Assembly: GCA_021828285.1 (NCBI GenBank)
Contig: JAKASG010000001.1
Span: 27,326-91,325 of the forward strand
Source of the DNA: Acidobacteriota bacterium
Lineage (GTDB): Bacteria; Acidobacteriota; Terriglobia; UBA7540
DNA length: 64,000 nucleotides
Direction of reading: 5' to 3'
In this document: in pieces, positions 3,024 to 24,905 of the stretch
Numbering within the stretch: the first letter of the stretch is position 1
Layout of the letters: each line of letters starts with the position of its first letter
The notes under the pieces: model-generated
Told to the model about the DNA's origin: nothing
Database searches by the model: none
What the model saw: only the letters and a program-made list of their open reading frames with translations
Made by a program: the position numbers and the translations under genes

Positions 3024-4400
3024 TCAGCGCGCTGCGTCTCCGCCATGGGCCGGCTGAGGGGTCGTCTTGAGCGTTTCCGGGCCGCGCTCAACGACGCGAT
3101 AAATGAGCAAAAGGAAAAGAATGCTGAGCAGTGTATAAATTCCCATGAAACCCAGCAGCGTAAACCAGACGTTTCCTGAAGAGACTTGGGGCGAAACGCC
3201 CGCTGCTGTCCGCATCAATCCATAAATGATCCAGGGTTGACGGCCGGTTTCGGCAGTCATCCAGCCCGCGGTGTTGGCGATGTAGGGGAAAGGAAGGGAA
3301 AGCATGAGCGCCCAGAGCATCGGCCGAAAAGTAAAAAGCGTTCCTCGCCACAGCATCCATGCGGCAAGCCCCATAATGAGAATAAAGATGGTGCCGAGTC
3401 CCACCATGATGTGGTATGAGAAATACACAATCGGGACATTGTCCGGCCAAAGTTTTTGTGGAAACGCATCGAGGCCCTTGACGGTTGATTCCCAGCGGCG
3501 ATAGGTCAGGAAGCTGAGCGCGCGCGGCACTTCGAGCGGATTATCCAGCCGCTTCTTTCGCATGTCGGGCTGGCCGATGAGAGCAATGGGCGCTCCGGCT
3601 TGGGTGTGAAACAATCCTTCCATCGCCGCGAGGGTGACCGGCTGATTCTGCGCCAGCATTTGGCCCTGGCCGTCGCCGGTCGGAAAGAGCTGCATGATCG
3701 TCGCGAAGACTCCGACGATCACGCCCACGCGGACAAATGTGCGGCCGTAGTCGTCATGCCGTCCAACCAGCAGGTAGAAGGCTCCGAGCGCTGCCATGGC
3801 GAACGTTCCGGTAATCACCGCGCCGCACATGGTGTGCGCATACTGCCAAAGCGCCCAGTGATTCAGGAGCAAGCCCCAGAAGCTGGTCAGCGAGAGCTCG
3901 CCGTTCGGGCCGATCGCGTAGGCGACGGGGTGCTGCATCCAGGCGTTGGTAGCGACAATCAGATAACCCGAAAGCCAGGAGCCCAGAAACACCATCAATG
4001 CCGAAAACCAATGGCCCTTCCGTCCCAGCCGTTTTTCGCCGAACAAGAGCAGCCCCAGAAAGCTTGATTCGAGAAAGAAGGAGAACACGCCTTCCATCGC
4101 AAGCGTCTGCCCAATCACGCCGCCCGCAACTTTTGAAAACGCCGCCCAGTTGGTTCCGAACTGGAATTCCATCGGAATGCCGGTTACCACTCCCATGGCG
4201 AAGTTGATGGCGAAAACTTTCGCCCAGAATCGCGCGGCACGGTTGTAATGTTCGTTGCCGGTTCTGAGCGCCAACGTTTTGAGAATCAAAATCAGGAGCG
4301 CCAGCCCCATCGTGAGCTGCGGGAAGAGGTAGTGATAGGTGACAGTAAATGCGAAATGGAGGCGGTCAACGGTCAGAGCTTCAGACATAACAACCTCCAC
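3024..4400 (-). CDS. cydA: cytochrome bd ubiquinol oxidase subunit I
   Basis: 458 aa, with LHFAFTVTYHYLFPQLTMGLA... and GRQPWIIYGLMRT motifs typical of CydA. Confidence 0.9.
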   Translation of the reverse strand: MEVVMSEALTVDRLHFAFTVTYHYLFPQLTMGLALLILILKTLALRTGNEHYNRAARFWAKVFAINFAMGVVTGIPMEFQFGTNWAAFSKVAGGVIGQTLAMEGVFSFFLESSFLGLLLFGEKRLGRKGHWFSALMVFLGSWLSGYLIVATNAWMQHPVAYAIGPNGELSLTSFWGLLLNHWALWQYAHTMCGAVITGTFAMAALGAFYLLVGRHDDYGRTFVRVGVIVGVFATIMQLFPTGDGQGQMLAQNQPVTLAAMEGLFHTQAGAPIALIGQPDMRKKRLDNPLEVPRALSFLTYRRWESTVKGLDAFPQKLWPDNVPIVYFSYHIMVGLGTIFILIMGLAAWMLWRGTLFTFRPMLWALMLSLPFPYIANTAGWMTAETGRQPWIIYGLMRTAAGVSPQVSSGNVWFTLLGFMGIYTLLSILFLLLIYRVVERGPETLKTTPQPAHGGDAAR

Positions 4401-4772
4401 GAGAGAGCAAAGAGCTTTGGGCGGGAACGCCGCAGTTACAATTCAAAGAATCGCCCGATCCACGCCGTGGTTGCGAGCAGGAAGCTGCCGGTGAGCCTCG
4501 GCGAAGGCTTGGGATAACGCCCTTTGAGTGCGCGGGAGCGCAGCGCATTACGTTTCTCTTCAACCTCGTTACAACCAACATTCTAAGGCCGGCCGCGCGT
4601 TTCGTGGAGGTGATTTGCGTCACCTTCCTGTTCGGCCGTCGAACCTTCGGTTGACTCTCAGCCGCCGAGCGCAGGAGAAGATCGAGCAGATGTCTGGATG
4701 GACGGACGGAACCAGCGAGGCGCCAGCACAAAGCGCGTCCCGTGAGCGGCGCGAGAACGCCGGAGCTTTTGC

Positions 4773-5489
4773 TCACTTGTTGAAGAGCGCGTAATACGTT
4801 AGCCCTCCGGCAATTCCTCCGACGATGGGCCCGAGGATCGGCACCCACGCATAGCCCCAATCCGAGCCCTCCTTGCCTTCGATCGGCAGCAAGGCATGCG
4901 CAATGCGCGGAGCCAGATCGCGCGCAGGATTGATAGCGTAGCCCGTCGGGCCGCCGAGCGACAATCCAATCGCCAGCACCAGCAGGCCCACCAGCAGCGG
5001 TGTCAACCCCGACTGCGCAGCGGGATTGTTGGCGGAAATAGCGAGCAATCCGAATATCAGCACGAAGGTTCCAATCGCTTCGGTCAAGAAGTTCATGGGC
5101 GGCCGGCGGATGGCAGGAACGGTCGAGAAAGCCATCAATTTGCGCTGCGCGTCTTCGGTTTCGCTCCAGTGCGGGAGATAGGTGAGCCAGACCAGGACGG
5201 CTCCAAGAAAGCCGCCTGCCATCTGTCCCCCGATGTATTTTGGGACTTCGCTCCAGGGAAATTTGCCTGCCACGGCGAGCGCAATCGTCACCGCCGGATT
5301 GATGTGCGCGCCGCTGATTCGGCCGACCGCGTAAACCGGAATCGCCACGGCCAGCCCCCACCCGATCGTAATCACGATCCAGCCTGAATTCTCCGCTTTC
5401 GATTTCTTCAGCAGTACCCCTGCAACCACGCCGTCCCCAAAAAGAATCAGCATTGCCGTCCCGATGATTTCCGCAACCCAGGGTTTCAC
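4773..5489 (-). CDS. glpF: MIP-family channel, aquaglyceroporin-like
   Basis: 238 aa with two NPA boxes (SGAHINPAVT and YAINPARDLAPR). The Asp after NPAR is the glycerol-facilitator flavour. The symbol is tentative. Confidence 0.85.
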   Translation of the reverse strand: MKPWVAEIIGTAMLILFGDGVVAGVLLKKSKAENSGWIVITIGWGLAVAIPVYAVGRISGAHINPAVTIALAVAGKFPWSEVPKYIGGQMAGGFLGAVLVWLTYLPHWSETEDAQRKLMAFSTVPAIRRPPMNFLTEAIGTFVLIFGLLAISANNPAAQSGLTPLLVGLLVLAIGLSLGGPTGYAINPARDLAPRIAHALLPIEGKEGSDWGYAWVPILGPIVGGIAGGLTYYALFNK

Positions 5490-5648
5490 ACGCCTCCTCT
5501 CGCTCGGCCGAAAGTCGCCCGCGGGAAAGCCGAAAGGAGTATAGACTCACCCGGCGGCTAAAGCGCGCAGATTTTGCAGCGGGGAAATCAGGACACGCCG
5601 GCGGGAAAGAATCGGGCGAGAGTCCCGGGATGTTAACCGGAACGCTTG

Positions 5649-7547
5649 CTACGCGGGCTGCGTTCGTTCACGGCCGGGAACACTGGATGAGGGTTGCGGC
5701 TTCAGGACCTGGGTGACTTCCGGCTCCGCAGGCTTGGTCACGGGGAGCTCGGGCAAGGGTTTCCCCTCGATGAGCAATTTGACTTCGTTGGCGTTGAGCA
5801 CTTCGCGTTCGAGCAACGATTCGGCGATTCGCTTAAGGGTGTCGCGGTTCTTGCTCAAGACGTCTTTCGCGCGTTCGTAACCGGTGATCACGAACCGTTT
5901 CACTTCCTGATCGATTTTGATGGCCGTCGCTTCACTGAAGTCGCGCTGCGTCGTCAGGTCGCGTCCCAGGAAAATTTCCTGCTGGTTCTTGCCGAAAGCG
6001 AGCGGCCCAAGCTCGGACATCCCATATTCGCAGACCATTTCCCGGGCCAGGTGCGTGGCGCGCTCGATATCATTGCTCGCGCCGGTGGTCATGTGCTCGA
6101 GGAAAAGTTCCTCCGCCACGCGCCCGCCCATCAGCACCGCCAGTTCGGATTCCAGGTAGTCACGGGTATGCGTGTGCTTGTCGTCCACGGGGAGTTGCTG
6201 CGTCACGCCGAGCGCCCAGCCGCGCGGAATGATCGTCACCTTGTGGAGCGGGTCGGCGTGCGGCATCGAGGCTGCGACCAGTGCGTGCCCGGCTTCGTGA
6301 TAGGCGGTGTTCTTCTTTTCCTCGTCTGAGAGAATCAGGGACCGGCGCTCCGCGCCCATCAGCACCTTGTCCTTCGCATACTCGAAATCCGCCATGATGA
6401 CTTGTTTGCGGTTATGACGGGCGGCGAGCAACGCCGCTTCGTTCACCAAGTTCGCGAGATCGGCGCCCGAAAATCCCGGCGTGCCGCGCGAGAGCACGGA
6501 GATGTCCACGTCCTCGCCGAGCGGGATTTTCTTGGTGTGAACTTTGAGGATTCCTTCGCGCCCGCCCACATCGGGCAAGGGAACCATCACGCGGCGGTCG
6601 AAGCGCCCGGGTCGCAGAAGCGCCGGATCGAGAACGTCAGGGCGGTTCGTGGCGGCGATCATGATCACGCCTTCGTTCGATTCGAAGCCATCCATCTCAA
6701 CGAGCATCTGGTTGAGCGTCTGCTCGCGCTCGTCGTGCCCGCCGCCGAGCCCCGCGCCGCGGTGCCGGCCCACGGCGTCAATCTCGTCAACGAAGATGAT
6801 GCAGGGCGCGTTTTTCTTGCCTTGCTCGAAAAGGTCGCGGACGCGCGAAGCGCCTACGCCCACGAACATTTCCACAAAATCCGACCCGGAAATCGAGAAG
6901 AACGGAACATTTGCTTCGCCCGCGATCGCGCGCGCGAGCAGCGTCTTGCCCGTTCCGGGCGGCCCGACCAGCAGCACGCCCTTCGGAATGCGCCCGCCGA
7001 GCTTCTGGAATTTCTGCGGCTCCTTCAGGAACTCGATGATCTCATGGAGCTCGTCTTTCGCCTCTTCGACGCCTGCCACGTCTTTGAACGTCACTTTCTT
7101 TTGCTGGCTCGAGAGCAGCCGGGCACGGCTCTTCCCGAAGGAAAGGGCTTTGTTCCCTCCGGCCTGCATTTGCCTCATGAAGAAGATCCAAAGTCCGAGC
7201 AGAAGCAGGATAGGCAAGGCGTTGAACAGCCAGCCTTCCCAGGCGCTGCCGGATGCGTCCTTGATCACCACGTTCACGTTCTTAGTTTGCAGGCTGGTGT
7301 AAAGGTTCGGATAATTGGTCGGAATGGTCGTCTTGAATGCCTGGTTATTCTTTCGCAATTTCCCTTTGACGTCCATCCCTTCAATCGTCACGCTGAGGAC
7401 GTCTCCGTTGTTCACCTCATTCACGAATTGGGTGAACGTCAGTTGGGACACTTGAGGGGTTGACTGGGATTCCACCACTTTCCAAATCACCAGTGCAGCC
7501 ACGGCCATCAGAATCCAGAAAACGATATTTTTGACCGTTGAATTCAC
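5649..7547 (-). CDS. ftsH: ATP-dependent zinc metalloprotease FtsH
   Basis: 632 aa with Walker A GPPGTGKT, an SRH region, and the HEAGHA zinc motif. It has a GTG start and sits in the conserved tilS-hpt-ftsH order. Confidence 0.95.
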
Positions 7548-13359: not shown

Positions 13360-13450
13360 TGCCCCACAGGGCTGGCGGAGCGGGAATCGCGAATCGAGCG
13401 TGGCCAGCCGCTGAACATTGACGACGGGGTTTTTCCCCGGAGGAGGAGTT

Positions 13451-13801
13451 ATGTCGTTTGATGATGAAAGGGAGCCCGGTGACGAGATGGAGGATATGGG
13501 TGACGAACTCTCCTCCGACTACGAGGAAGAAGAAGGCGGCGTGAGCGAAGAGAGCGAAGGCCTGGAAGAGGAGATTTCATACGAATCGGAAGAGACGCAA
13601 GTGATCGCGCCACTGGCGCCGGCTCCGGCCGCGACGCCGGCTCCCACGGCTCGCAAAGCGCCTTCGAAGGCGCGGACTCGGACGGCGAAAGCGAAGCCGA
13701 AAAAGCCCGCGAAGAAAGCCATGAAGCCTCGCGCCAAGGCCGCAAAAAAAGCAAAGGCGAAGCCCAAGCGCCGCCCCAAAGCGCGCGGCCGGCGACGCTG
13801 A
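13451..13801 (+). CDS. bipolar low-complexity protein: acidic N-terminal half and Lys/Ala/Pro-rich histone-H1-like basic C-terminal half
   Basis: MSFDDEREPGDEMEDMGDELSSDYEEEEGGVSEESEGLEEEISYESEE...TARKAPSKARTRTAKAKPKKPAKKAMKPRAKAAKKAKAKPKRRPKARGRRR. The ATG at 13451 is preceded by GGAGGAGGAG. Confidence 0.6.
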   Translation: MSFDDEREPGDEMEDMGDELSSDYEEEEGGVSEESEGLEEEISYESEETQVIAPLAPAPAATPAPTARKAPSKARTRTAKAKPKKPAKKAMKPRAKAAKKAKAKPKRRPKARGRRR

Positions 13802-13877
13802 ACATCCCGGCCGGATGGCGCGGCCGGGAATCAGCCATTCGCGTCAAAGGCGTGAGACTTCCCGCCGTGAGTGAGCC

Positions 13878-14780
13878 TTGATGGCCCGAGCCGGGATTGA
13901 CACCTCTCGAAACAGGCGGGCGAGCGCGGCCAAAACCGGAGATGGGTCCGCCCCCGCGCCCTCGAGTGAAGTTAGGCGCGTCGTCGCCGTCGAATACGTC
14001 CGCCGGATGCGTGGCGCTTCCCAACCCTTCCTGCTGCGTTGCGACGACGGCGGACTTTACGTCGTCAAGTTTCGCAACAATCCTCAGCACGTCCGCATTC
14101 TCGCGAACGAGCTGCTCGCGGCCTCGCTTGCGCGCCTCATCGGCTTGCCTGCGCCCTTGCCGGCGATTGTGGAGGTGCCCGCAGAGATGCTCGAAAAGAG
14201 CGCAAAACTTGAGTTCCAAATCGGCTCGCGCAATGAGCCGTGCCTGCCCGGCGCCCAGTTCGGCTCGCGGTATCCGGCGGGGTCGGAAGCGCTGCGGGTG
14301 GTAGATTTTCTGCCCGACCGCCTGCTGCGCCGAGTGCCTTCGGTGGAATCGCTCTTTATCGGCGCTTACGTTTTTGATAAATGGACTTGCAATTGCGACG
14401 GCCGGCAGGTGATCTTTTTCCGTTCGGACGAGCGTGAAGACCGCGCCTATTCCGCGGCGCTCATTGACCATGGCTTCTGCTTCAACGACGGCGAATGGAA
14501 TTTTCCCGACAGCCCCATTCGCAGCTTTTACCCGCGCCGGATTGTGTATGAGTCCGTCCGCGGCCTGCGGTCCTTTGAACCCTACCTCTCGCGCGTCGAA
14601 AATCTCGAAGCGCGTGAGATCAAGGAGTGCGTCGAAGCCATTCCCGGCGAATGGTGCGGCGACGCGCCCGATGAAGCGGCGCACCTCGGCGAACGCCTTG
14701 TCGAGCGCCGCCGGCGCCTGCGCCAGATGATCATTGAGGCGAGAGACAGCGCCCTTCGCCCGTTCCCCAATTGGGAATGA
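13878..14780 (+). CDS. HipA-like Ser/Thr-kinase-fold protein (the start codon is uncertain)
   Basis: 300 aa with GASQPFLLRCDDGGLYVVKFRNNPQ..RILANELLAASLARLIGLP at the N-terminus, a catalytic-loop-like FDKWTCNCDGRQVIF, and a DxG-like AALIDHGFCF. The call rests on pattern similarity to HipA-C-like kinases, judged by eye. Confidence 0.55.
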   Translation: MMARAGIDTSRNRRASAAKTGDGSAPAPSSEVRRVVAVEYVRRMRGASQPFLLRCDDGGLYVVKFRNNPQHVRILANELLAASLARLIGLPAPLPAIVEVPAEMLEKSAKLEFQIGSRNEPCLPGAQFGSRYPAGSEALRVVDFLPDRLLRRVPSVESLFIGAYVFDKWTCNCDGRQVIFFRSDEREDRAYSAALIDHGFCFNDGEWNFPDSPIRSFYPRRIVYESVRGLRSFEPYLSRVENLEAREIKECVEAIPGEWCGDAPDEAAHLGERLVERRRRLRQMIIEARDSALRPFPNWE

Positions 14781-14827
14781 GCGCCGGGCTGCACTTGGGA
14801 GCGCATTCGAAGACGGTTTGAACGCTC

Positions 14828-15643
14828 ATGCCCGCGAAGCCTGATTTGAAAGAATGTTCGCTTTACGTCGTACACTACGTTCCGGACCTGGTGCGCGGCG
14901 AATCCTTGAATATCGGCCTGCTCTTGCACAGCCCGGAGCAGCAATATCTCGGCTGCCTGTTTTCCGACGATTTTCGCCGCATCAAGCGGCTCGATCCTCA
15001 CGCCGACCTCGAGCTTTTGCGCGAGCTTCAACAGGATTTTGAGCAGCAGATTGATCTGCACGCCGCGAATCTCGATGAGTACGTTCGGGAGATGCGCGAG
15101 ACGCTTTCGAATCTCATTCAGCTTGATGCTCCACGCGTCTGCTATTTGCGCGACCCGCAGACCGAGCTGGCGAACCTCTTCGAGCGTTACGTGGGGGCGC
15201 GGCTTGGGGGTCCTCCGCCCGAAGATACTCGCCCTCGCATCAAGCAGCGGCTGACGACGGCGCTCGTTCAGGCGGGCGTCTGGGAACGGCTTGAAAAGCG
15301 GATTCCTGCCGGGCGGTGGACCCATCCGGGCGATCCCTTTGCCTTCGATTACGGCTATCGTCCCGTGGCCATCGGCGGCGCGCCGAACGGCCACATCAAG
15401 CTGATTCACGCGCTTTCCCTCAAGCGGGACGCGGACCTCGCGAAAGTGCTCGTTTACACGCTCGACCACGTTCGGCGCAGTGAGCGGGCGGAATTGACGG
15501 CCGTTGTCGAGCGCGCACCCTCGGCGCAGGATGACCCCGGCGCGGTTTCCAAGCGCATTCTCGCCGAAGGCGGCATCACGATTTGTCCGCTCGCTCAGGT
15601 GGGCGAGTTTGCCGCATCCATACGCCACGAACTCGTAATGTAA
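14828..15643 (+). CDS. DUF3037 domain protein
   Basis: 271 aa. The N-terminus CSLYVVHYVPDLVRGESLNIGLLLHSP matches the characteristic DUF3037 opening (Y..RYvPd..RgE..NvGvvl). Confidence 0.65.
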   Translation: MPAKPDLKECSLYVVHYVPDLVRGESLNIGLLLHSPEQQYLGCLFSDDFRRIKRLDPHADLELLRELQQDFEQQIDLHAANLDEYVREMRETLSNLIQLDAPRVCYLRDPQTELANLFERYVGARLGGPPPEDTRPRIKQRLTTALVQAGVWERLEKRIPAGRWTHPGDPFAFDYGYRPVAIGGAPNGHIKLIHALSLKRDADLAKVLVYTLDHVRRSERAELTAVVERAPSAQDDPGAVSKRILAEGGITICPLAQVGEFAASIRHELVM

Positions 15644-15683: not shown

Positions 15684-15713
15684 TTGGAATAATACATCGC
15701 AGTATGATACAAT
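15684..15713 (+). promoter_or_regulatory. sigma-70-like promoter with an extended -10 (TTGGAA-N18-TGATACAAT) in an AT-rich island
   Basis: TTGGAA at 15684-15689 and TACAAT at 15708-15713, preceded by TGA. It is followed by a GCGCC/GGCGC hairpin and the marR-like ATG at 15765. Confidence 0.4.
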
Positions 15714-20284: not shown

Positions 20285-21772
20285 TCAAGGCGTTGCAGAA
20301 GTTGAGTTGCGCGCCTCCCAGAGCGGATCTGCAACCGATCCAACCAAATAGGCCGAGCTCGACAGAGGCGCCCGCCCGGGCGAGTTTGCTGCCGTGCTGC
20401 TTTGCTGCGACGAAGAGCCCGTATACTGAGACAATCGAATCGTCCCGTAAGTTGTGCGCAGGCGAATGGTCGGGCCGTTCGCTCCAATGCCGCCTGAAAT
20501 CGAAGGCCGGCCGCCTCCTTTCGACAAATGCAGGCCTGGCGCTGAAAAGCTGCTATAGACGTCTCCGCCACGAGCTACCGCGTCAATCTGGAAGGCTGCG
20601 GATGCCGGCAAATCCAATTCGATATCTCCTTTTTTAAGATCAACCTCAATGGGATGTTTGAGCGGCGCAGCGGGTCGAAGCTGGACGTCGCCATTCGCGT
20701 CCGTGATGTGCGCGTCGTAATCGAAGTTCGCGAGGCGAATGTCTTTCTGTCGGGTCGTGAGGTTGAACGGGCCGCCCACGCCATCGGCATCGAGCGAACC
20801 TATATCCATGTTGAGGTGGCCGGAAATCTTCTCGACCGTCAGATCGGTGCGCGATGAAGTGAAGCGAAGTGTCTGCGACACGTTTTGGAATTGCATCGCG
20901 CCTGAAAAATCGCCTTCAATGGTGACGGAACCGGTCACGCCGGAGACTTGCACGTCTTCGCCGCGCCCCTCGAGGTGAATGTCGCCGGTCATGCTGCTCA
21001 CCACCGTGGACCCGCCGGACTTATCGATCTGCAATCGGCCACTGGCGTTCATCACATGCACATCCCCGTGCTTGTCGGTGAGCCGAGCGGAGCCGCTCAA
21101 GCCGTCCAGGAGGATATCGCCCTGGCCGGCGGTGAGGTCGGCGGAGGTTTCGGCCGGAGCGTGAAGCACAATATCCAGACGGATGTTTGAGCCGCCGCGG
21201 GGCAATTGGCTGAGGTTCGATTGGAGCGTATAAGCGCCGCCTTGGTGAGAAAAGGAAAGCTGAATTTGCCTTGCGAGCTCGTCGGCGGACTGGCGGTCGT
21301 TCGCGGTTACGGTCTCTTTGATGGAGGCGGAAAGCTCCGGCGCGCTTGAAGCGTGCACCTCGATATCACCCCAGGGATCGACGACAACCAGATGGTCCGG
21401 CGCGGTGACCGGTTGCGAAAGAGTCTGGGAATAGGTGTAAGAATTCATGAAAAGCTCGCCCATGCCGCGTCCCATCGGCCCCCAGCGTCCCCATGGATGG
21501 AGCACGATCGCCGAGACCAGAGATCCGAAGATGAGGATGAGCACGAGGAGAACGACTTCACTCGCCGTAAAAACAGGCGGAGGCGTCCCGGGTCGCGGCG
21601 TGAGGTGCTCGATCAGCTTGGAAATACCCCAGATGATAATCAACGCAGGCCAGTACTTGGCGATGATCTCCCACGGGTGGACGGCTGGATTGAATTGTTG
21701 GTAGAGAAACAGCACGCCCACCGAAATCAGAATCAACGGCCAGAAAATGGATCGGCGACGATAGCTATCCAT
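20285..21772 (-). CDS. membrane-anchored DUF4097 (toast-rack beta-repeat) protein with a LiaF-like N-terminal TM region
   Basis: The N-terminus SIFWPLILISVGVLFLYQQF...YWPALIIIWGISKL gives 2-3 TM helices. It is followed by repeated beta-strand motifs (GDILLDGLSGSARL, GDVHVMNASGRLQI, GDIHLEGRGEDVQVSGVTGSVTIEG, GDVQLRP, GDIELDLP). The start is ATG 21772 or the upstream ATG at 21841. Confidence 0.7.
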   Translation of the reverse strand: MDSYRRRSIFWPLILISVGVLFLYQQFNPAVHPWEIIAKYWPALIIIWGISKLIEHLTPRPGTPPPVFTASEVVLLVLILIFGSLVSAIVLHPWGRWGPMGRGMGELFMNSYTYSQTLSQPVTAPDHLVVVDPWGDIEVHASSAPELSASIKETVTANDRQSADELARQIQLSFSHQGGAYTLQSNLSQLPRGGSNIRLDIVLHAPAETSADLTAGQGDILLDGLSGSARLTDKHGDVHVMNASGRLQIDKSGGSTVVSSMTGDIHLEGRGEDVQVSGVTGSVTIEGDFSGAMQFQNVSQTLRFTSSRTDLTVEKISGHLNMDIGSLDADGVGGPFNLTTRQKDIRLANFDYDAHITDANGDVQLRPAAPLKHPIEVDLKKGDIELDLPASAAFQIDAVARGGDVYSSFSAPGLHLSKGGGRPSISGGIGANGPTIRLRTTYGTIRLSQYTGSSSQQSSTAANSPGRAPLSSSAYLVGSVADPLWEARNSTSATP

Positions 21773-21849
21773 GGTTCGCCTCGAATTGCCAATTGGCCTG
21801 AAAAGCCCCATGCCGTTTCGACCGGCATGCATCAACGGCAATTATTCGC

Positions 21850-22041
21850 TTACTTGCCTTGCTTCACTCTCTGAAGCTCCTCTTCAAGCTCGCGCATCCT
21901 TCGTGCATGTTCCCTTTCCTCGGGCTCGAGTTTACACACCGTGTCGGCCTCACTGTCGTGGAGGCGCGCCATCACAACGATCCCCACAATCAGGACCACA
22001 GCGAGGAAAACCCCGAGGGGAATAATGAACGGTGAATTCAT
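21850..22041 (-). CDS. small single-pass membrane protein with a charged coiled-coil tail (paralog A, PspB-like architecture)
   Basis: MNSPFIIPLGVFLAVVLIVGIVVMARLHDSE...EEREHARRMRELEEELQRVKQGK. It shares NPFIIPLG.F with paralog C. The longer track ORF (to 22146) would overlap paralog B. Confidence 0.55.
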   Translation of the reverse strand: MNSPFIIPLGVFLAVVLIVGIVVMARLHDSEADTVCKLEPEEREHARRMRELEEELQRVKQGK

Positions 22042-22090
22042 GGCCTCGCTCTTTTCCGCGGCACGGGGCGTCTCGCCTGCGCGGCAACCG

Positions 22091-22303
22091 TCAGGCGACC
22101 TTCTGGCCCGCCTGCTGCGCCTTCGTTTTCTCGATTTCCAGGTCAAGCTCTTTCATGTGCCGCTCGTGCTCCATCTCACGGATGCGCAATTCCTGGTGGA
22201 TTTTGAGCTCGTGCTCACGAGTTTTCCCCCAGACGCCGACGGCAACGACGGCGATAATCATGATCCACACGCCCATCGAAGACAAAAAATGAAAAATTGA
22301 CAT
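22091..22303 (-). CDS. small single-pass membrane protein with a charged coiled-coil tail (paralog B)
   Basis: MSIFHFLSSMGVWIMIIAVVAVGVWGKTREHELKIHQELRIREMEHERHMKELDLEIEKTKAQQ.... GGAGG lies 7 nt upstream of ATG 22303. The KTRE.EL..H..LR.REMEHER..K segment is shared with paralog C. Confidence 0.6.
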   Translation of the reverse strand: MSIFHFLSSMGVWIMIIAVVAVGVWGKTREHELKIHQELRIREMEHERHMKELDLEIEKTKAQQAGQKVA

Positions 22304-22317
22304 TGTCGAACCTCCTT

Positions 22318-22441
22318 GATTTATTGGCGATTGATGAGAGCCCTCAGCCATCAGGTCTCGGCTTTCAGCGCTAACACCCTCGGCCCTTTGCTGAGAGCTG
22401 ACCGCTGAAAGCTCTCAATCGCAAATCGCCAATCAGAAATC
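22318..22441 (-). promoter_or_regulatory. nested inverted repeats forming a large predicted RNA structure between paralogs C and B
   Basis: The outer arms GATTTATTGGCGATTGA (22318-22334) and TCAATCGCAAATCGCCAATCAGAAATC (22415-22441) pair as 5+9 bp helices. The inner perfect 10-bp arms are GCTTTCAGCG (22361-22370) and CGCTGAAAGC (22403-22412). Confidence 0.4.
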
Positions 22442-22450
22442 CCAAATCCT
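22416..22450. repeat. five tandem heptamers (CAATCGC AAATCGC CAATCAG AAATCCC AAATCCT)
   Basis: Read directly. The array begins at the stop codon of paralog C. Confidence 0.7.
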
Positions 22451-22671
22451 CAGTGGCTGCCTCCCGCTTTCGTTTTCTCAAGCTCGATCTTGGCCTTTTC
22501 GATCTCCATCTGCTTCAGTTGGCGCTCGTGCTCCATTTCACGCATTCGCAGATCGCGGTGGGCTTCCAGCTCTTTTTCCCGCGTCTTGCGATAGGACCAG
22601 ATTGCGACGATGACAATCACCATCGCAAACGCCCCCAACGGAATAATGAAAGGATTTTGTAACCAATCCAT
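22450..22671 (-). CDS. small single-pass membrane protein with a charged coiled-coil tail (paralog C)
   Basis: MDWLQNPFIIPLGAFAMVIVIVAIWSYRKTREKELEAHRDLRMREMEHERQLKQMEIEKAKIELEKTK, with GGAGG upstream of the ATG. Confidence 0.6.
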   Translation of the reverse strand: MDWLQNPFIIPLGAFAMVIVIVAIWSYRKTREKELEAHRDLRMREMEHERQLKQMEIEKAKIELEKTKAGGSH

Positions 22672-22732
22672 GCGCGTTCACCTCCTCCAGATATTCGCTC
22701 CCTGAATGGTTAATCCTCATTTTCGGCCTTTC

Positions 22733-22942
22733 CTATTGTACTGCGTGCTGCCGCTCTCCATGCCGCACGAGCAGCCAAATTCCAACGCCAATGAGGATGA
22801 ACGGGCTCAGCGGAATCAGCAGACCCAGGCCGATGCCCAGAAGCGCTCCGCCGAGGCCGAACAGAATTCCCAGCGCGCCGGTCATCAATCCAAAAACCAG
22901 CGCGCACATCCCTATCGCCAAACCGAAGATTAGTCTGAACAT
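22733..22942 (-). CDS. Gly-rich (glycine-zipper-like) small membrane protein
   Basis: MFRLIFGLAIGMCALVFGLMTGALGILFGLGGALLGIGLGLLIPLSPFILIGVGIWLLV. GGAGGG lies 5 nt upstream of ATG 22942. Confidence 0.5.
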   Translation of the reverse strand: MFRLIFGLAIGMCALVFGLMTGALGILFGLGGALLGIGLGLLIPLSPFILIGVGIWLLVRHGERQHAVQ

Positions 22943-22999
22943 CTTAGCCCTCCGAAGAATTCGGCTTCCGGGAATTGCCAACCCTCCCCGCGATTCCGC

Positions 23000-23686
23000 C
23001 TACAGGCTCATTCCGCCGCCCGTTTTGGAATCCTGAGCGCCCGCGCCGGGAGGATTCGCCGGCGGCTGCTGCGGTGACGCGACAATATGGCTGGTGCGCT
23101 TCTGCAGGATCAGAATCCCCAAGACGATCAAGAGCACCGGCCAGAACTTGGAAGCTTCTCTGAATACCGGGATGCCGAGATTATCGAGCATAAAGAGCGT
23201 TCCCAGAACGATGAGAAGGCCCGCGGCAACCGGACCGGTCATTTTGAAATCGCCCAGGCCGAACCATTCCTGCGGCTGCTGTCCGAGCTGCTTCGCGCGC
23301 GCCGTCTGATAGGAATCGAAGACCATGTAAAAATAGAAGGCCGCCGAAGCGAAACCAAAAATGGTGCTCAAAGGGTCGGCGACGCGATTGCTGATTGCGA
23401 TCAGCGAACCGAAGAGCAGAACCTGAATGAACCCTTTCATGATCTGCCCGTTGTAAATCGCTCCCACGCCGGGGATGAATCCCAGGGCGAGCGCGACGCC
23501 GGGGCTGGGCGCTCCGGGAACGCCAAAAGCCGGCGGAATACCAGTCGAGGAGCGTAAGCGAGCTGCCAGGCAAGCCTCACAGTAAACGGCTCCGCTGACC
23601 GTGCGCTTGCAGTCCGCACAGAGCGCGCGGCCGCACTGTCCGCAATAGGCAACCGAATCAACGAGTGGATGGTTTGAGCATTTCAT
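23000..23686 (-). CDS. B-box/zinc-ribbon N-terminal domain fused to a polytopic membrane region (the C-terminal TM pair resembles the LiaF-type N-terminal TM region)
   Basis: MKCSNHPLVDSVAYCGQCGRALCADCKRTVSGAVYCEACL is followed by GFIPGVGAIYNGQIMKG... and FWPVLLIVLGILILQKR. The gene is tightly packed (2-nt gap) behind the anti-sigma gene. Confidence 0.65.
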   Translation of the reverse strand: MKCSNHPLVDSVAYCGQCGRALCADCKRTVSGAVYCEACLAARLRSSTGIPPAFGVPGAPSPGVALALGFIPGVGAIYNGQIMKGFIQVLLFGSLIAISNRVADPLSTIFGFASAAFYFYMVFDSYQTARAKQLGQQPQEWFGLGDFKMTGPVAAGLLIVLGTLFMLDNLGIPVFREASKFWPVLLIVLGILILQKRTSHIVASPQQPPANPPGAGAQDSKTGGGMSL

Positions 23687-23688
23687 GG

Positions 23689-24348
23689 TTATGGCTTCCT
23701 CGCGGACGCCGCCAGGCGGTCTATTTTGGAAGTCCCAATCCAGGCCATTTGGGAATCTCGCGCAACACCCTTGTCGCTGGCGCCGCCCGCGGGCCGAGCC
23801 GGCTCGGAAGCGGGCTTCCGCGCATTCGAGGGCCGCAATTGGCTCAGCCGCGACTCGATCTCGTAAACCACGCGAAGATCGTAGTAGAACCTTTCAGCGC
23901 GCGCGGCAAGCAGGTGACCCGCCTGGTTAGCGCGGTAAAACCAGGTTCCTGGATTCAAATCGCTCAAGCGGAGTTTGCGCACGTTTAATCCTGAGGCATT
24001 GATGAGGATGGAGATCGAAAAGACCGCCATCGCCACCGTATAGGCAACGCGCAGTTGGAAGACCGGCCGCAGAAACGCCTGCAGGCGCTCGCTGAACGCC
24101 GGGCGGCTCTCGCCGATAGTGGCGCGAAGAATGTTCGGGACCATCCACGGCGGCGGTTCAAGCGCTTCGGCTGTGTGGCACAAATCGAGCGCCTCGCGCA
24201 GGCTTCCCATGAGGCCCCTGCACTCTTCGCAAGCGTCCAGGTGCTTTTCCATCTGCGCCCGGGCCGCCGCATCAAGCTGGCCTTCCAGGTAATCGCTCGC
24301 GAGATGTTCGATCTCGAGGTGCGTCATTGCGCTTCCTTCAACCCTCAC
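23689..24348 (-). CDS. anti-sigma factor (zf-HC2 type) with one TM segment
   Basis: HLEIEHLASDYLEGQLDAAARAQMEKHLDACEECRGLM is an H-x3-C-x2-C motif. The GTG start at 24348 overlaps the sigma stop (GTGA). An alternative ATG lies at 24327. Confidence 0.8.
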   Translation of the reverse strand: MRVEGSAMTHLEIEHLASDYLEGQLDAAARAQMEKHLDACEECRGLMGSLREALDLCHTAEALEPPPWMVPNILRATIGESRPAFSERLQAFLRPVFQLRVAYTVAMAVFSISILINASGLNVRKLRLSDLNPGTWFYRANQAGHLLAARAERFYYDLRVVYEIESRLSQLRPSNARKPASEPARPAGGASDKGVARDSQMAWIGTSKIDRLAASARKP

Positions 24349-24905
24349 TCATCCATACGCTTTATGAGGCGCGCAAGTTCCAGGCGCCCGCGGTTGATTC
24401 GGGACTTCACGGTGCCCTGCGGGACACTTAAAACCTGCGCAATTTCAGCGTAATCCAAGTCCTGCAAATCCCTGAGGATAACGGCCTCGCGCAACTCCGG
24501 CGACAGATGTTCGAGCGCCGCCTGGAGAGCCTCATGGCGTTCGCGGTGTTCCAGGCGCTCGATGGGATGCTCGCCCCTGGCAGGCTTTTCTTCGATCCGC
24601 ACGCTCGTCTCTTCGAGTGAAGATGTGACGCGGTCTTTCTTCGTGCGGCGGTAATGGTCCACCAGGTGGTTGCGCGCCACGCGGTTCAGCCAGGTCGAAA
24701 AACTCCCTTGCGCAGGGTCGAACGACTTCAGCGTCTGGAAGATTTTGATGAACACTTCCTGCGTCAGATCGTCCGCGTCCTCGCGCCGGCCGGTGAAACG
24801 GTAGCACAGGTTGTAGATTTTCCGGCTGTGCAGATGAAGCAGATTCTCCCAGGCCAGGTTGTCGCCGGTGAGGCATTGCTTCACCAGTTCGTGGTCTTGC
24901 TCCAC
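24345..24905 (-). CDS. ECF (group IV) RNA polymerase sigma factor
   Basis: 186 aa with sigma-70 region 2 (YNLCYRFTGRREDADDLTQEVFIKIF) and region 4 (DLQDLDYAEIAQVLSVPQGTVKSRINRGR). Confidence 0.9.
   Translation of the reverse strand: MEQDHELVKQCLTGDNLAWENLLHLHSRKIYNLCYRFTGRREDADDLTQEVFIKIFQTLKSFDPAQGSFSTWLNRVARNHLVDHYRRTKKDRVTSSLEETSVRIEEKPARGEHPIERLEHRERHEALQAALEHLSPELREAVILRDLQDLDYAEIAQVLSVPQGTVKSRINRGRLELARLIKRMDE

Follow-up and report, generated by a model that had tools for sequence, protein, structure and literature searches.

A vertically inherited chromosomal HipA_2 kinase-DUF3037 gene pair in Terriglobia related to the PDC-M66, DS-6 and HipAD systems

A stretch of 64,000 nucleotides from an Acidobacteriota bacterium of the Terriglobia (contig JAKASG010000001.1, positions 27,326 to 91,325), hereafter called the window, was found to carry two adjacent genes that encode a HipA_2-type kinase and a DUF3037 protein. 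The pair is a chromosomal member of the HipA_2/DUF3037 family (PDC-M66, DS-6, HipAD), and its mechanism is most likely toxin-antitoxin (TA)-like, with a probability of about 0.6. Both genes are homologous to those of the family, the catalytic residues of the kinase are intact, adjacency and gene order are strict across genomes, the partner protein is modular, and the pair is inherited vertically. Toxicity of the kinase, neutralisation by the partner and defence against phages would be expected at this locus by analogy with homologues. An earlier note on the window had described two co-directional genes with a 47-nt gap, and both open reading frames (ORFs) indeed lie on the forward strand at that distance. 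It had regarded the module as one of unknown function, which is outdated: the pair corresponds to the PADLOC candidate PDC-M66, and homologues have been validated as anti-phage systems of a kinase toxin and a DUF3037 antitoxin (PMC12548924; PMC13092281).

The HipA-type kinase suggested in the earlier note was confirmed by profile searches. The protein matched Pfam HipA_2 (PF20613) with an E-value of 7.3e-18 and 65.1 bits (cut-off 27), with residues 42-275 aligned to profile positions 6-222 of 240, and the model PDC-M66A of PADLOC-DB v2 was matched over the full length (E 4.7e-14). HipA_2 was the only family reported by Pfam; HipA_C and HipA_N domains were not found in the kinase. The quoted motifs were all present (RGASQPF..YVVKF..NNPQH..ANELLAASLARLIGLP, FDKWTCNCDGRQ and LIDHGF). 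K64 (YVVKF), D167 and N172 (FDKWTCN) and D197 (LIDHGF) were invariant in an alignment of 40 homologues; among 78 kinases from the related loci described below, K64, D167 and N172 were each kept in 78/78, and D197 in 77/78. By its sequence, D167-x4-N172 corresponds to the classical catalytic loop and D197 to the Mg-binding Asp, in line with the Mg-binding-like role that had been proposed for the IDHG motif. The proposed catalytic loop also exists and is intact, but its Asp is D167 and not D174 of 'NCDGRQ', as had been supposed. D174 is replaced by Asn in 9 of the 78 relatives and was therefore not considered to be the catalytic base.

Conservation of the kinase starts at about residue 33 in the 40 homologues; the ~32 residues before this point vary and are predicted to be disordered. 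At the other end, the C-terminal helix is kept and the protein finishes with an RPFPNW tail, of which PFPNW is invariant among the 40 homologues; the tail is also kept in the kinase of locus L178, which is 45% identical and paired with the same type of partner C-domain. The AlphaFold 2 (AF2) model of the kinase was weak, with a predicted local distance difference test score (pLDDT) of 65 and a catalytic core below 50. All matches of this model found by Foldseek in the PDB were protein-kinase-like folds, namely Fam20C (Golgi casein kinase), CtkA of Helicobacter pylori, phosphatidylinositol 4-kinase (PI4K) type II alpha and Rio. The best match was 4kqa (Fam20C, E 1.8e-4), and CtkA reached a template modelling (TM) score of 0.36-0.38. 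Because the model was poor, these matches were taken to support a protein-kinase-like fold and nothing narrower; the likeness is at fold level, with 12-15% identity, and neither the gene context nor the partner is shared. Hidden Markov model (HMM) searches of both the kinase and the partner family against all PDB sequences gave no match (best E 0.66 and 0.97), and an NCBIfam search returned a model for neither protein.

The second gene had been assigned to DUF3037, and this proved correct. The diagnostic segment YVVHYVPDLVRGESLNIGLLL was found in the protein, which matched Pfam DUF3037 (PF11236) with an E-value of 2e-19 and 70.4 bits (cut-off 22.6), residues 14-122 being aligned to profile positions 3-118 of 118. 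The match to PADLOC PDC-M66B (E 1.9e-10) covered residues 13-86 only. The AF2 model of the partner was confident (pLDDT 89, predicted TM score 0.85) and showed two domains, an N-terminal DUF3037 domain of about residues 8-122 followed by a linker helix, and a C-terminal domain of about residues 135-270 with an alpha-beta-beta-beta-alpha-beta topology. An exhaustive search yielded 835 clusters (at 50% identity) related to the partner; most were 265-280 aa long and aligned end to end, and the two-domain form was therefore regarded as a sizeable subfamily.

The C-terminal domain is of a type of its own. No Pfam family was found over it, either in the window protein or in 70 diverse relatives, and DUF1829 was not found in these 70 subfamily members. 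A Foldseek search of the partner model against the PDB gave nothing below E 0.01. The weak matches of the C-domain were enriched in PD-(D/E)xK proteins and included Can2 (E 0.012), BstEII, NucS/EndoMS, a Cas4-like protein, EcoO109I and FAAP24, and a viral structure library contained two similar-length phage proteins without names (E 2e-10 and 7e-9) and a DUF1828-domain protein (E 8.6e-3). In the wide-family alignment Y17, P19, N28, G30, D60, Q98, R135, D169, D174 and Y177 were invariant, D169, D174 and Y177 belonging to a GDP..D.GY motif of the C-domain, and a canonical (D/E)xK motif was not conserved in this domain. From the cluster of weak nuclease matches and the topology, the C-domain may tentatively be described as a nuclease-like fold, possibly DNA-binding.

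Comparison of DUF3037 partners suggested which part of the protein is constant. The DUF3037 protein of the Bacteroides finegoldii plasmid consists of a single domain of 127 aa and has no C-domain; the C-domain is HipD-type in phage PhiR5_1, DUF1829 in DS-6B, winged-helix-like in the Retron-Sda1-linked pair and of its own type here. HipD was aligned to positions 6-271 of 281 of PDC-M66B, whereas the window partner and its subfamily profile matched through the N-domain and the linker alone. Judged from these sequences, the DUF3037 domain stays constant and the C-terminal domain can be exchanged. On the simplest reading, with which this modular architecture agrees, the N-terminal DUF3037 domain would bind and neutralise the kinase, and the C-domain, which varies, would serve as a sensor or regulator.

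According to the earlier note the two families tend to be neighbours in diverse bacteria, and this was found to hold. A scan of GTDB species representatives returned 221 relatives of the partner, of which the best 80 loci were analysed (numbered with the prefix L). All were from Acidobacteriota/Terriglobia metagenome-assembled genomes (MAGs), and 78 were evaluable, two being cut by contig ends. The genome sampling covers the Terriglobia clade, as broader DUF3037 alignments were too diverse for a locus scan. In 77 of the 78 evaluable loci the kinase gene was the immediate upstream neighbour of the DUF3037 gene and had the same orientation, and the gap between the genes in 79 related loci was 7-239 nt with a median of 37 and zero overlaps. 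Outside the phylum the same order was observed in 3/3 loci, in Escherichia phage PhiR5_1, on the B. finegoldii plasmid and in Nonomuraea gerenzanensis, where the 11.85-Mb replicon with the pair is listed as 'plasmid I' in PLSDB. A distant member of the two-domain subfamily (L178/L179) has a partner 33% and a kinase 45% identical to those of the window, with the kinase gene 2 nt upstream. Independently, DUF3037 has been described as 'strongly associated' with HipA-like proteins, in a pair that equals PDC-M66 (PMC12548924). Failure of the HMM searches, lack of co-localisation and missing catalytic residues had been named in the earlier note as grounds for giving up its reading; the searches succeeded, the families co-localise and the residues are in place. 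The sole locus without a kinase among the 80, L064, contains a true orphan DUF3037 gene (3999-4784). A large DNA methyltransferase-like ORF (5270-6913) lies beside it, and the region is apparently rearranged.

Experimental data exist for homologous pairs. In the Retron-Sda1-linked pair, deletion of HipA ended defence against phage Bas51 and deletion of DUF3037 was toxic, while the retron parts were dispensable (PMC12548924). DS-6 (DefensePredictor) has also been validated; its DS-6A is HipA-like and its DS-6B consists of DUF3037 plus DUF1829, a catalytic mutant of the kinase lost defence, and AlphaFold 3 (AF3) predicted A-B and B-DNA contacts (PMC13092281). According to PMC13092281, where the action of HipA on GltX is also summarised, Brenes & Laub 2025 found DS-6 independently and gave it the name HipAD.

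The window genes resemble PDC-M66, DS-6 and HipAD in that a HipA_2 kinase gene precedes a co-directional gene for a DUF3037 protein, and both PDC-M66 models match them. HipA of phage PhiR5_1 and the window kinase are 34% identical over 236 aa (E 3e-24), with DKW..N and LIDH aligned, and HipD and the window partner are 29% identical over residues 10-123 only (BLASTP). The phage hipA and hipD genes (L175 2743-4316) overlap by 4 nt and are flanked by cI and kil in an immunity region of lambdoid type, at the position that rexAB occupies in lambda. They are annotated as 'HipA toxin' and 'HipD antitoxin' in the GenBank record (PV340545.1). Several differences were also noted. PhiR5_1 HipA (249 aa) lacks the ~32-aa disordered N-terminus and the RPFPNW tail of the window kinase. 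In hhalign, the alignment of the window subfamily profile with HipD stopped at residue 156 (aligned 7-156), leaving the C-domain unmatched; full-length homology of the window partner to HipD or PDC-M66B was not observed, and DUF1829 as in DS-6B is likewise absent. The window lineage has an additional conserved gene upstream, which encodes a protein with an acidic head and a basic tail (the bipolar protein). Moreover, in contrast to HipAD, DS-6 and the Retron-Sda1-linked pair, the window pair is chromosomal, syntenic and vertically inherited, and is not part of a prophage, a retron or a defence island.

Escherichia coli K-12 HipBA, a type II TA system in which HipA phosphorylates GltX, offers a more remote comparison. 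The concept of a Ser/Thr kinase toxin restrained by a co-encoded partner would be common to both, by homology in the case of the window pair, and the catalytic Lys, the D-x4-N loop and the Mg-binding Asp are shared. However, K-12 HipA (440 aa, against about 300 aa for the window kinase) belongs to the HipA_C/HipA_N family and not to HipA_2, and neither hhalign nor the PDB profile search revealed any similarity in sequence; hhalign of the kinase family against K-12 HipA gave a probability of 1% without a meaningful alignment. The gene order is also reversed, hipB being upstream of hipA, and the HipB helix-turn-helix (HTH) antitoxin is missing at the present locus. The earlier note was thus right that the unit holds no HipB-like HTH protein: the upstream gene encodes the bipolar protein, and marR, on the downstream side, does not accompany the pair in related genomes. 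MarR was considered as a HipB-like regulator and rejected, as marR adjoins the pair only in this genome among the related loci compared.

The mechanism that we favour is supported by the experiments on the Retron-Sda1-linked pair and DS-6. The DUF3037 protein would use its conserved N-terminal domain to bind the Ser/Thr kinase, which is catalytically competent by its residues, and keep it inactive, and the lineage-specific C-domain of the DUF3037 protein, weakly nuclease-fold-like and maybe DNA-binding, would sense a signal or regulate the system. Loss, titration or triggering of the partner, for example by phage infection, would free the kinase, which could then phosphorylate an essential target and arrest growth, leading to abortive infection or dormancy.

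The position of the pair was conserved in related genomes. The usual block order is ferredoxin, MltD-like LysM transglycosylase, bipolar protein, kinase and DUF3037. Mantel tests on pairwise-identity matrices of 46 loci gave r of 0.81 for kinase versus partner, 0.81 for kinase versus MltD and 0.69 for partner versus MltD (all p <= 0.001), and over the same loci the mean identity of the kinase was 68%, compared with 60% for MltD. The correlated divergence of the three proteins together with the conservation of the kinase indicated a long vertical co-inheritance. In 39 of the 92 sequences searched (e.g. L005 11178-14738; L178 7121-10807), the pair was followed at a distance of a few kb by a 2-oxoacid dehydrogenase operon (E2, E1beta, E1alpha) on the opposite strand, and the presence of this operon near the pair of even the 33%-identical relative suggested deep synteny. 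In the window this downstream flank is swapped for marR-ClC-rubrerythrin-aroA. A metagenome scan anchored on the ferredoxin gave 2/80 relevant loci, both with the block; the ferredoxin itself is conserved far beyond the clade. The pair is a long-term, vertically inherited chromosomal resident at a fixed site in the Terriglobia lineage, unlike its homologues on mobile elements. The possibility that it is a decaying remnant was rejected, as orthologues of 47-69% identity agree in protein length, in the catalytic residues and at many invariant positions.

The cassette can also be missing. Eight MltD-anchored loci, picked because they were absent from the listed partner hits, were examined: four contained the bipolar gene and the pair, and in the other four all three genes were missing. 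In two of the empty loci MltD was ~80% identical to that of cassette-bearing genomes. At L173, an empty locus, DNA homology to cassette-bearing genomes stopped at the MltD stop codon, and no cassette remnants were found in the gaps of the two close empty loci. Since the cassette is missing as a whole from close relatives, its three genes come and go together, and it is dispensable, as a TA or defence module would be. A protein of ~80 aa is encoded directly downstream of DUF3037 in roughly 45 of the 80 GTDB loci (L007-L086; other examples are L004 10838-11080 and L005 10819-11088). It has the motif ...VECYAGxKADERPxRF...DQWYG..YQCFKVRADDGNxYxLRH; a Pfam match was not found, and the gene is absent from the window.

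Several observations speak against the TA-like defence function that we prefer. The partner C-domain did not align with that of HipD or with PDC-M66B, so that neutralisation or sensing may differ, and a gap of 47 nt lies between the two genes, which in the phage overlap by 4 nt. The AF2 model of the kinase catalytic core was poor. Co-divergence with MltD and the high conservation of the kinase would be odd for fast-turnover defence genes, and the pair stands in a housekeeping context without a tRNA, integrase, GC shift or defence island. Finally, its experimental support comes from homologues.

The main rival explanation is a pair domesticated for signalling, with the bipolar protein at the centre. 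This protein has the head consensus M.FD.E.EpGdElEd.gdELSSDY.EE.EE...EEvSyE and a tail with 44% Lys+Arg and 41% Ala+Pro, and a search against Pfam found no family match. A gene of this type was observed directly upstream of the kinase gene in 67 of 73 evaluable loci. Because of this co-occurrence the bipolar protein is a candidate third component, and the earlier note was perceptive in pointing to it, next to the DUF3037 protein, as a possible source of regulation or neutralisation. Both of its conserved serines are in S-x-[DE] contexts, and given these it could, as a speculation, be a substrate of the kinase. In a domesticated signalling cassette the kinase would phosphorylate the head serines (ELSSDY, EEVSYE) and thereby switch nucleic-acid binding by the basic tail, with DUF3037 as a regulator; the output would be dormancy or control of the nucleoid state in slow-growing soil bacteria, the bipolar protein being nucleoid-protein-like. 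The gain and loss of the bipolar gene with the pair, the conserved acidic-head motif and the vertical, syntenic inheritance between MltD and the 2-oxoacid dehydrogenase operon are consistent with such a role, and so is the finding that the best structural matches of the kinase, albeit from a low-confidence model, were Fam20C-type acidophilic S-x-E kinases.

A further observation of this kind was made in the distant relative L178/L179, where a dual-specificity phosphatase (Pfam DSPc, 152 aa) is encoded just upstream of the kinase (3597-4055 and 3263-3721, respectively). Its HCAAGVHR (HC-x5-R) motif is intact, and its place beside the pair hints at reversible phosphorylation and might suggest phospho-signalling. 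Nevertheless, the argument for a signalling cassette is built purely on gene neighbourhood and motifs. The relocated pairs at L005, L016 and L022 are without the bipolar gene, which shows that the two genes can occur by themselves; close relatives do without the cassette; and the homologues tested in experiments are toxin/antitoxin defence systems. Co-transcription of the three genes is putative, and the hairpin between the bipolar gene and the kinase gene in the window is not conserved: similar hairpins were found in 3/60 related loci compared with 2/60 shuffled sequences, which gave no indication of a conserved terminator or operator. This hairpin is probably a local terminator or a chance occurrence and not a conserved part of the module. 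Altogether, we consider a domesticated signalling cassette possible but rather unlikely. A more specific proposal is doubtful, namely that in this uncultured lineage the pair is no mobile immune gene but belongs to an ancient cassette, passed on vertically, of three or four genes (bipolar protein, kinase, DUF3037 with its nuclease-fold domain and sometimes the ~80-aa protein), and that the defence pair was co-opted as a chromatin or dormancy phospho-switch with the bipolar head as substrate.

A classical chromosomal TA pair without a role in phage defence, acting in selfish addiction, as a persistence module or as a stabiliser of the local region, would have the same architecture and draw on the same homologue data as the TA-like defence system, including the toxicity of DUF3037 loss in a homologue. 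The pair is solitary, its surroundings are housekeeping, and other defence genes are absent nearby. Selfish TA modules, however, tend to be distributed patchily and to move horizontally. In contrast, the position here is fixed and the divergence follows that of a neighbour gene, and all experimentally tested homologues did defend against phage, which makes this explanation decidedly improbable.

It is very improbable that the kinase acts on a lipid or a small molecule with DUF3037 as an unrelated cofactor: although one homologue is named 'phosphatidylinositol kinase' at NCBI, the Bacteroides homologue has a weak PI3_PI4_kinase match (E 0.0055, below cut-off) and PI4KIIalpha and aminoglycoside/macrolide phosphotransferases were among the weak Foldseek matches, HipA_2 was the sole profile above threshold, all members of the HipA superfamily characterised so far are, to our knowledge, protein kinases, and a protein-kinase toxin fits better with a kinase so strictly paired with a neutralising partner, the loss of which is toxic.

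The features of the locus are collected in the table below. The kinase ORF, which ends at 14780, may start with TTG at 13878 (300 aa) or ATG at 13881 (299 aa); the latter is the start chosen in the public gene annotation of this contig (GCA_027389235.1, DAHYBK010000025.1, Terriglobia MAG). As the earlier note had stated, the neighbours of the pair in the window are housekeeping genes. Neither an integrase nor a defence island was found among them, and a promoter-like site ahead of marR fits the separately promoted marR-ClC unit that had been proposed. The GC content is flat over the kinase-DUF3037 region without a shift, and transfer RNA (tRNA) and Rfam scans of the whole 64-kb window gave zero matches. 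Two antisense ORFs overlap both genes. They are typical high-GC shadow ORFs, conservation among homologues favouring the forward-strand genes. Further downstream, a region that corresponds to L001 15458-20078 encodes an extracytoplasmic function (ECF) sigma factor, a zf-HC2 anti-sigma factor and two LiaF/DUF4097-like membrane proteins, and four small unannotated ORFs of 58-73 aa stand in a row there between the named genes.

Table. Features at and around the kinase-DUF3037 locus (window coordinates)
Feature	Coordinates	Strand	Description
Bipolar protein gene, candidate accessory	13451..13801	+	116 aa; acidic head, basic tail
Hairpin TCCCGGCCG-N7-CGGCCGGGA	13805..13829	+	perfect 9-bp stem; between bipolar stop codon and kinase
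HipA_2 kinase gene	13881..14780	+	299 aa; Pfam HipA_2 PF20613
Variable kinase N-terminus	13881-13976		predicted disordered
Kinase C-terminal helix and tail	14730-14780		RPFPNW at end
Kinase-DUF3037 spacer	14781..14827	+	47 nt, no gene overlap
DUF3037 partner gene	14828..15643	+	271 aa, two domains; Pfam PF11236
Partner N-terminal domain	14849-15193		DUF3037
Partner C-terminal domain	15230-15637		tentatively nuclease-like fold
Promoter-like site	15684-15713		ahead of marR
Antisense ORF	13449-14684	-	411 aa
Antisense ORF	14582-15628	-	348 aa
Sigma factor region	~20285-24905		ECF sigma factor, zf-HC2 anti-sigma factor, two LiaF/DUF4097-like membrane proteins, four small ORFs

The association of the kinase with DUF3037 and its function in defence are already published and partly validated, and the locus alone opens no new question. 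The locus is of value for comparison, as it shows a kinase-based system as a long-lived, syntenic chromosomal resident across >200 species-level Acidobacteriota genomes, with a distinct partner C-domain, extra kinase tails and a tightly linked acidic/basic protein. If the target and the trigger of the HipAD kinase are still lacking, the vertically inherited variants, with their bipolar protein, phosphatase neighbour and variable C-domains, might offer natural hints to them. They also raise the question whether some 'defence' kinases could have housekeeping roles in slow-growing soil bacteria.

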